From: a virus
Lineage: Monodnaviria; Loebvirae; Hofneiviricota; Faserviricetes; Tubulavirales
IMG/VR virus record: IMGVR_UViG_2660238352_000022
Strand: one strand, 5' to 3'
Length of the DNA stretch: 11,781 bases
Shown piece after piece: positions 1,900 through 2,492 of this stretch (position 1 is the stretch's first letter; each line of letters opens with the position of its first letter). Below the pieces are notes generated by a model. The model had not been told where the DNA came from. It was given only the letters and a program-made list of their open reading frames with translations, and ran no database searches. Made by a program: the position numbers and the translations under genes.

Positions 1900-2492
1900 A
1901 TGATGAGATTGATTAACTTACTGACAGCATTTCTTTTTTTGACTTCGGCGTGTGTGCATGCCTCGTCTCCGGCCTTTTTTGTTGACCGTATTCCGCTCAA
2001 TGCAGCGATACAGCTGGCTCAGGAAGATATTTTCAGGCGTCAGTATGCGTTGCCGCCTGAACTTGCTGACAGCATTTCTTTTTTTGACTTCGGCGTGTGT
2101 GCATGCCTCGTCTCCGGCCTTTTTTGTTGACCGTATTCCGCTCAATGCAGCGATACAGCTGGCTCAGGAAGATATTTTCAGGCGTCAGTATGCGTTGCCG
2201 CCTGAACTTGCTGACAGCATTTCTTTTTTTGACTTCGGCGTGTGTGCATGCCTCGTCTCCGGCCTTTTTTGCTGACCGTATTCCGCTCAATGCAGCGATA
2301 CAGCTGGCTCAGGAAGATATTTTCAGGCGTCAGTATGCGTTGCCGCCTGAACTTGCGCTGGGTGGTCTGGCAGAAAACAAGGATTCGCAGGCCAACACAG
2401 GATTATCATTTCTGCCAAAGAGCTGGAGTCAGAAGTCTGACGAGAAGAGCCGCACGGATATGGTTATTCTGTTACAGGTCAAAAAAGTTTGA
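1900..2492 (+). pseudogene. Disrupted pIV-like secretin gene (copy 1)
   Basis: The first 177 nt are identical to the start of the intact secretin gene at 10260, including the signal peptide [22 protein letters not shown] 145-bp unit is then repeated three times (145 is not a multiple of 3, so the frame shifts). The sequence then jumps to the last 140 bp or so of the gene ([44 protein letters not shown]), deleting about 0.9 kb relative to copy 2. Confidence 0.8.
1921..2355. repeat. 145-bp direct tandem repeat, 3 copies, inside the disrupted secretin gene
   Basis: CTGACAGCATTTCTTTTTTTGACTTCGGCG... begins at 1921, 2066 and 2211. Single copy in the intact gene (about 10281..10436). Junctions show AACTT/CTGAC microhomology. 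Confidence 0.9.

Follow-up and report, generated by a model that had tools for sequence, protein, structure and literature searches.

A secretin gene disrupted by a deletion and a tandem 145-bp repeat in a filamentous prophage array at the dif site of Escherichia coli

In a tandem array of filamentous prophages in Escherichia coli, the pIV-like secretin gene of the first copy has been destroyed by the tandem amplification of a 145-bp segment and by an in-frame deletion of 906 bp, and the second copy carries an intact secretin gene. As a whole, these observations are in all likelihood best explained by a real and heritable secretin null allele, generated by deletion plus amplification, whose phage would obtain its secretin in trans and be exported in the style of CTXphi. 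Judged from the sequences, the deletion is genuine and inherited, as is at least a duplication; the number of three units and the order of the copies in the array are provisional. The points of note are the breakpoint shared by both rearrangements, a signal-peptide-like N-terminus created at the repeat junction, variation in copy number, and a possible circulating lineage of secretin-less phages.

The window analysed here is the whole stretch of 11,781 bp, and it corresponds to one entire contig (CDRO01002335.1, number 2335) of the fragmented short-read E. coli draft GCA_001373195.1. Copy 1 (1-2559) is only the tail of a filamentous prophage and comprises the end of pVI, the pI/Zot gene and the secretin remnant. 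Copy 2 (about 2560-11535) is a complete second prophage, and it is followed by 246 bp of chromosome.

Secretin remnant and its junctions

The remnant of the copy-1 secretin gene lies at 1900..2492 on the plus strand. The original prediction held that this pIV-like gene was destroyed by a 145-bp triplication and a 0.9-kb deletion, and both Tandem Repeats Finder and blastn bear this out. A tandem repeat was reported at 1915-2356 with a period of 145, 3.0 copies, 99% matches and a score of 870. Comparison by blastn with the intact gene of copy 2 (10260..11468) displayed the units, both junctions and the missing 906 bp. From the native start, 1900-2066 equals 10260-10426. The three units begin at 1921, 2066 and 2211, as predicted, with 0, 0 and 1 mismatches to 10281-10425: unit 1 (1921..2065, plus strand) covers codons 8-56, unit 2 (2066..2210, plus strand) is identical to unit 1, and unit 3 (2211..2355, plus strand) carries one SNP at 2272 (T>C, Val>Ala). 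After the deletion junction the sequence indeed resumes near the C-terminus, with the last 44 codons and the stop, and 2357-2559 matches 11333-11535 at 100%. The segment of the intact gene missing from copy 1 is 10427..11332 (plus strand; 906 bp, 302 codons, in frame), which encodes residues 57-358.

The unit length is not a multiple of three, again as predicted; 145 mod 3 is 1, and therefore the two extra units shift the reading frame. In a Pfam search at E <= 0.01, the ORFs of 1900-2492 matched no family, PF00263 (Secretin) included, and the copy-2 protein contains an intact PF00263 domain at residues 250-397. Because this domain overlaps the deleted residues 57-358, the barrel is gone, and the allele, as read from its sequence, is incapable of forming a secretin barrel or channel; by this domain criterion it has dropped out of the secretin family. 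The prediction that copy 1 lacks an export channel of its own thus agrees with these results. A phase-variable switch based on the tandem repeat was considered and rejected, since no number of units restores the barrel: the one-unit form of the allele is in frame yet lacks the barrel, and the four-unit form is in frame by length, with stops in the shifted units.

Two imperfect 7-nt direct repeats, AACTTAC (10275-10281) and AACTTGC (10420-10426), delimit the unit in the intact gene. On the plus strand of the intact phage, the motif AACTTRC occurs only at 10275 and 10420; in the window it has 7 matches against 3.1 expected, and 5 of the 7 lie within the array itself. The duplication junction, AACTTGC followed by TGAC(AGC), stands at 2060..2066 and again at 2205-2211 on the plus strand, and it derives from AACTTAC (1915-1921) and AACTTGC. 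The deletion junction (2350..2363, plus strand) places AACTTGC before GCTGGGT, with the break at 2356/2357; it connects 10426 to 11333 in frame, as a blunt join. The novel junction sequences of the allele are AACTTGCTGACAGC and AACTTGCGCTGGG. A deletion mediated by TTGC would predict TTGCTGGG, from which the observed junction differs. Of the microhomology originally proposed for the junctions, AACTT and CTGAC, the first corresponds to the imperfect AACTTAC/AACTTGC repeat, but CTGAC is merely the start of the unit, and the blunt deletion junction has none. The proposed slippage or template switching is reasonable for the duplication, where the imperfect AACTT(A/G)C repeat would be the substrate.

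The right end of the duplication and the left end of the deletion are the same nucleotide (2356/2357; after 10426). If the two events were independent, the probability of such a coincidence is estimated, not computed, at a few per cent at most. The shared breakpoint therefore suggests either one complex event of template switching or two separate events where the sequence is fragile. No direct or inverted repeats spanning 10426/11333 were found. Two candidate causes were rejected. Stalling at a hairpin is not convincing, as the 11-nt stem present at 10392-10421 is weak (dG -8.6 kcal/mol, z = -1.7). A pseudo-nick site for Rep (an HUH endonuclease) was also considered, but AACTTRC is absent from the intergenic/origin region of the intact phage.

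According to the mechanism proposed here, the 145-bp segment (codons 8-56) would have been amplified in tandem by slipped-strand or template-switch replication between AACTTAC and AACTTGC, and the blunt in-frame 906-bp deletion would have taken out residues 57-358, which comprise the remaining part of the N-terminal domains together with about three quarters of the barrel. The SNP gives some indication of the order of events. T is found in all intact genes and in the one-unit allele, and every amplified allele seen has C in its last unit only. The simplest path consistent with these states is deletion, then duplication, then the SNP, then further expansion of T units. The reverse could also have occurred, with a complex event making several units at once and the one-unit form arising later by recombination between units or by collapse in an assembler.

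Three small ORFs are encoded in the remnant on the plus strand. ORF A (1900..2130, 76 aa) has the native start, the signal peptide, 35 native residues and a frameshifted tail, and it corresponds to the RefSeq hypothetical protein WP_072048653.1. ORF B (2045..2275, 76 aa) starts at a junction-created ATG and otherwise has the sequence of ORF A. ORF C (2190..2492, 100 aa; RefSeq hypothetical protein WP_044696899.1) has a signal-peptide-like N-terminus followed by native residues 22-56 and 359-402. It can be seen that annotation pipelines list the remnant under these two hypothetical proteins. The suggestion that short peptides bearing signal peptides could be encoded is in line with the translated ORFs of 76, 76 and 100 aa. 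The related statement that the repeated segment encodes the signal peptide and the start of the N-domain is correct for codons 8-56; however, the unit begins at codon 8, so that the initiator Met lies outside it and is supplied by a new ATG arising at each unit junction (2045, 2190). By inspection only, a charged n-region can be seen in both the native and the junction-made N-termini, followed by a hydrophobic core and then by a VHA motif before SS.

These ORFs are most likely by-products of the unit junctions. It is very unlikely that the remnant is a functional new gene whose 100-aa 'mini-secretin' (ORF C), 76-aa peptides or both are secreted and useful, for example in blocking the assembly of competing phages or in superinfection exclusion, roles that would explain the persistence of the allele in several backbones. 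The deletion is in frame, but an in-frame outcome has a prior of 1 in 3. After the junction ATG come two Arg residues, a hydrophobic core and then a cleavage motif of the VHA type, an arrangement that resembles the MMRLINLL N-terminus of the native protein; however, the native gene already has this ATG, in its +1 frame at the unit's end, and the sole purine run upstream of the junction ATGs is AGG, a weak ribosome-binding site. Although the ORFs are predicted by gene callers, are included in RefSeq, and belong to an allele found with three regulatory modules and in two chromosomal backgrounds, they have no family match, and all copies are 100% identical and thus carry no signal of selection. 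Moreover, residues 22-56 and 359-402 would be fragments of two domains of the pIV fold which, by comparison with the structure 7OFH, are unlikely to fold alone.

Recurrence of the allele and reliability of the assemblies

The same junctions and the same SNP were found on 14 contigs from 11 draft assemblies, including that of the window, with 2, 3 or 4 units. Among the NCBI drafts, ORF A is present on 5 contigs and ORF C on 14. An alignment of six contigs (the window and 5 other NCBI drafts) showed 100% identity over about 700 bp, including both junction types and the SNP of unit 3. Two units (T,C) were seen in one related contig (L011), three (T,T,C) in the window and eight contigs, and four (T,T,T,C) in another (L009). 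In addition, three ENA metagenome contigs (15-39 kb) carry the identical deletion junction with one unit, in a sole prophage between hipA and ydeP. This one-unit form could be a collapsed repeat, as the k of 141 used by MEGAHIT is below 145. Neither junction, nor the allele, was present in the 5,426 complete RefSeq E. coli genomes searched. When JGI metagenomes and GTDB representative genomes were scanned for exact matches to both junctions, only chance matches in unrelated sequence appeared, and our literature search found no paper mentioning these assemblies. Overall, the allele is shared beyond this array, variable in copy number, and present in several phage backbones and array positions.

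The original prediction had named misassembly as a concern. The recurrence of junctions and SNP in 10 other drafts, and of the deletion junction in 3 metagenome contigs, largely answers it, although the figure of three units is not secure. Several features would be expected if the triplication, and perhaps also the linkage of the broken gene to copy 1, were made by the assembler at a locus that is in truth one-unit or intact. The window is the entire contig of a very fragmented draft, and the amplified alleles all come from fragmented short-read drafts, seemingly of one sequencing project. Both the exact 145-bp units and the 203 bp past the deletion junction, which are identical in the two copies, exceed typical k-mer sizes. 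The pI alleles adjoining the broken gene look mosaic, as from chimeric phasing, and the allele is in no complete genome. An artefact of this extent is nevertheless improbable. Novel junctions must be present in the reads to be assembled at all; the junctions recur with the same SNP in 11 assemblies, and the deletion junction in three metagenome assemblies produced by other software. Phasing is given by unique sequence within 62 bp for the first unit (T) and within 84 bp for the last (C), and with this phasing at least 3 units must be present wherever a T unit comes after a junction. Also, tandem repeats are usually collapsed by assemblers and seldom expanded.

Only the exact unit number and the array order are therefore really doubtful. 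Short-read assemblies and k-mers cannot reliably count three or more exact 145-bp units, and the drafts vary among 2, 3 and 4, so that the number three is provisional. With 203 bp identical in both copies, the placement of the alleles as upstream or dif-proximal rests on read-pair scaffolding. In a further contig (L005), the broken secretin gene is followed by dif rather than by an att junction. In the draft GCA_000941435.1, two contigs (L002 and L012) each carry the defective allele with three units, and the regulatory module after it is the same on both, which may mean a mixed sample or an array with more than one secretin-less copy. The short internal repeats of these arrays (145 bp and 339 bp) are miscounted in short-read assemblies.

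Prophage array, variable modules and integration at dif

Copy 1 retains an intact gene for pI, the Zot-like assembly ATPase (241..1452, plus strand), whose copy-2 counterpart matches PF05707. In copy 2 the genes are arranged as follows: a small regulator (2864-3064, leftward), a rolling-circle Rep (3439-5439; PF05840, P2 gpA-like), a 141-aa protein (5470-5895), a coat-like protein of 80 aa (6228-6470), a pIII-like protein with a match to PF05357, Phage_Coat_A (6522-7886), pVI (7886-8245), pI/Zot (8262-9473; PF05707) and the intact secretin of 402 aa (10260-11468, plus strand; PF00263, E = 9e-25). The pI/Zot ATPase, a pIII-type adsorption protein, a small coat-like ORF and a rolling-circle Rep thus occur together, as in an inovirus. 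The gene order is kept in L001, L008 and L013. The best solved relative of the copy-2 secretin is f1 pIV (PDB 7OFH, E = 4e-15), the nearest phage secretins are those of metagenomic inoviruses with 44% amino-acid identity, and Rep is about 29% identical to the Rep of Vibrio VFJ/fs2. A nucleotide search of deposited phages returned no match to the window phage. From this absence of a nucleotide-level relative and the distance of the secretin and Rep relatives, the phage is assigned to an undescribed group of E. coli inoviruses, present as a tandem prophage array at chromosomal dif. An Rfam search of the whole window found no family.

The 5' end of the secretin gene occurs, at 92-99% identity, in about 18 complete RefSeq E. 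coli genomes. The best match (98-99%) is strain 100416 (L001), which has two tandem copies between hipA and ydeR, both with whole secretin genes. The entire 786-bp region between pI and the secretin gene was also found at 80711-81496 of OV141394.1 (362,852 bp; labelled as a Citrobacter youngae plasmid) with 99.9% identity, a finding that suggests either a mislabelled replicon or the presence of this phage beyond E. coli.

The two copies in the window differ at 27 of 1861 positions, evenly spread (1-1861 versus 8022-9882; 98.5% identity). Because of these differences, the array is not a simple duplication; it consists of two phage variants, or the contig is partly chimeric. Over 370 bp, the parts of the secretin remnant in copy 1 show no difference from copy 2. 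In the pIII-like protein, the Gly/Ser-rich linker (7139-7391) is a 39/78-bp tandem repeat, and the length of this protein differs among relatives (425 versus 451 aa).

To the right of attP lies a module (2640-3440 in the window, from 4615 in L002, 2960-3421 in L013) that is swappable and has three unrelated versions in phages otherwise 98-99% identical: the window has a 66-aa leftward ORF with an 82-aa ORF, L001, L002 and L008 have a 62-aa ORF, and in L013 and L014 the module encodes a 153-aa HTH_3 repressor. By analogy, it is reminiscent of the rstR immunity types of CTXphi. The region between pI and the secretin gene contains a 339-bp tandem repeat with about 1.2 copies in copy 1 (1466-1861), 2.2 in copy 2 (9487-10221) and 4.2 in L008 (8260-9672); a 312-bp variant is found in L009 and L011. 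Each unit begins with a GC-rich element of about 57 nt, CCGCTCGCCGCAGACCCAGCGACCGAACGTAGTGAGCGAGTGGTCGAGGAAGCGGAA, which matches 353 mostly small mobilizable plasmids at 90-97% identity. It resembles the primosome-assembly-site region downstream of the ColE1/pBR322 origin, and because of this resemblance it might serve as a minus-strand origin. The element, as present at the ends of the 339-bp repeat, folds no better than shuffled sequences (z = -0.2).

The deletion junction was found beside all three of the regulatory modules (66- plus 82-aa ORFs, 62-aa ORF, 153-aa HTH_3 ORF), with a pIII of either 425 or 451 aa, and with two chromosomal flanks. The pI alleles adjoining it are as diverse as the pI of intact phages. 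The backbones of the secretin-less prophages are 1-1.6% apart, and their remaining genes are all intact. Between the two complete secretin-less prophages, L008 and L013, there are 33 substitutions in pII and 12 in pI, and every other ORF is intact. This mosaic of backbones could reflect recombination within arrays or chimeric phasing of short reads.

In the att junction between the copies (2544..2641, plus strand; AGTGCGCATAATGTGACACGCGTTATGTTGAAAAG), two inverted dif-like half-sites flank a GC-rich stem, GGCCGCTGCG...CGCAGCGGCC, after which comes a T run. The single strand adopts a forked hairpin of the CTXphi attP(+) type, in which a central bulge stays unpaired (dG -40.9 kcal/mol versus a shuffle mean of -14.9, z = -8.85). 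At the right end, attR (11522..11549, plus strand) is the hybrid dif site AGTGCGCATAATGTATATTATGTTAAAT, followed by the chromosomal flank; it reads AGTGCGCATAA-TGTATA-TTATGTTAAAT, with a phage XerC arm joined to dif. In strain 100416, attL is GGTGCGCATAA, followed by phage sequence. Hybrid dif sites thus mark the array at chromosomal dif, between hipA and the ydeP/ydeR region, and the sequences of attL, the junction and attR fit an exchange with dif on the XerC side. Outside dif, 11557-11583 contains 2.7 copies of the 10-bp repeat GAGTGATACG, with fewer copies in strain 100416. The metagenome contigs L013-L015 have completely different sequence directly after dif.

Transmission in trans and comparison with known systems

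For phages of the CTXphi, YpfPhi and CUS-1 type, integration cannot be undone and phages are made by rolling-circle replication from tandem copies (PMC4246890; PMC4266046); production across adjacent copies is known for CTXphi and has been proposed for YpfPhi and CUS-1 (PMC4246890). Because the att site here is of the CTXphi type, phage DNA would be expected to arise from rolling-circle replication starting in the upstream copy and ending in the downstream copy. If the plus-strand origin lies to the left of pII, as in CTXphi, the genome so made would carry the genes of copy 1, including the dead secretin gene; by the CTXphi model, copy 1 would be the copy that is mobilised. Since the remnant cannot form a channel, a secretin would be needed in trans, either from the intact copy 2 or from the host. 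Dependence of copy 1 on copy 2, as originally proposed, is plausible. Copy 2 could act as a source of the channel in trans, yet its own genome could not be replicated out of the array. By this analogy, genomes with a defective secretin gene would be exported from the array, and such genomes would behave as helper-dependent phages. A helper-dependent passenger fits the finding of one deletion junction across modules, pIII lengths, pI alleles and flanks, although it is not proved by it. Transmission as such a phage is no more than suggested by the same junction in backbones 1-1.6% apart, with three modules and two flanks, a pattern that recombination or chimeric assembly could also yield.

Two further readings concern the secretin itself. 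In one, a secretin-independent lineage is in the making: the phage has switched to a host secretin, its own gene has become dispensable and is decaying, and the amplification is incidental. Inoviruses without pIV that use host secretins are established, as for CTXphi with EpsD. The one-unit allele is also found in a sole prophage at dif in three metagenome contigs, with the other phage genes intact; however, a sole defective prophage may be simply dead and recent, and metagenome contigs cannot exclude a second, intact copy elsewhere. As the use of any E. coli secretin by this phage is hypothetical, and the deleted allele is rare (17 contigs versus several hundred for the intact protein cluster), this reading is unlikely. 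In the other, which is rather doubtful, the deleted allele marks a circulating secretin-less lineage in E. coli that still spreads, as a satellite or through a host secretin, and that forms a natural intermediate between pIV-encoding and pIV-less phages. If this were true, replication of the array in the CTXphi style, with export of the upstream defective copy, would be the satellite route, and the junction-made 100-aa 'mini-secretin' might be an expressed and secreted product. If the allele is only a dead remnant, it represents routine prophage decay.

Under the preferred explanation, a heritable null allele with secretin in trans, the array offers a testable case of a filamentous phage that has lost its export channel alone. 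It raises the questions of whether export can proceed through the secretin of a neighbour or of the host, and whether the order of the array decides which allele is transmitted. More generally, the tandem inovirus arrays at E. coli dif are mixtures in which intact copies stand beside defective ones.

Compared to the Ff phages (f1/M13/fd), the copy-2 protein of 402 aa likewise contains the Secretin domain PF00263 of pIV, and its gene likewise ends the morphogenesis block, after pI. However, the copy-2 secretin is only about 26% identical to fd pIV, and the copy-1 allele, devoid of residues 57-358, gives no domain match. Additionally, the Ff phages do not integrate at dif, whereas this phage does.

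This phage resembles the CTXphi/RS1 arrays, YpfPhi and CUS-1 in integrating at dif, in having an attP that is folded from two inverted dif-like sites, in the tandem arrangement of copies that are not identical, in defective or satellite elements that would lean on a neighbour, and in the hybrid genomes expected from rolling-circle replication of adjacent copies. The UPphi and YpfPhi papers describe other dif-integrated inoviruses of E. coli and Yersinia, and this allele is unreported in them. In contrast to the present phage, which normally encodes a secretin, CTXphi, YpfPhi and CUS-1 encode none. The Rep protein also differs from that group, being of the PF05840 type and about 29% identical to that of Vibrio VFJ/fs2, and no deposited phage matches at the nucleotide level. 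Moreover, RS1 lacks the structural genes, whereas this variant lacks only the secretin.

As in slipped-strand duplications and VNTRs at short direct repeats, the amplified unit is bounded by a 7-nt imperfect repeat and its copy number varies from 1 to 4; here, however, a change in copy number restores no function, and the counts come from short-read assemblies. Finally, like the miniphages and defective interfering variants of Ff, the allele combines deletion with tandem duplication and would propagate only with an intact helper. Those miniphages delete most of the coding sequence and duplicate the origin region, whereas here one gene is hit, the repeat is coding, and inheritance is chromosomal. 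The mechanism is thus an ordinary deletion with slippage amplification, and the functional likeness is to the defective elements of CTXphi/RS1 and to the Ff miniphages.
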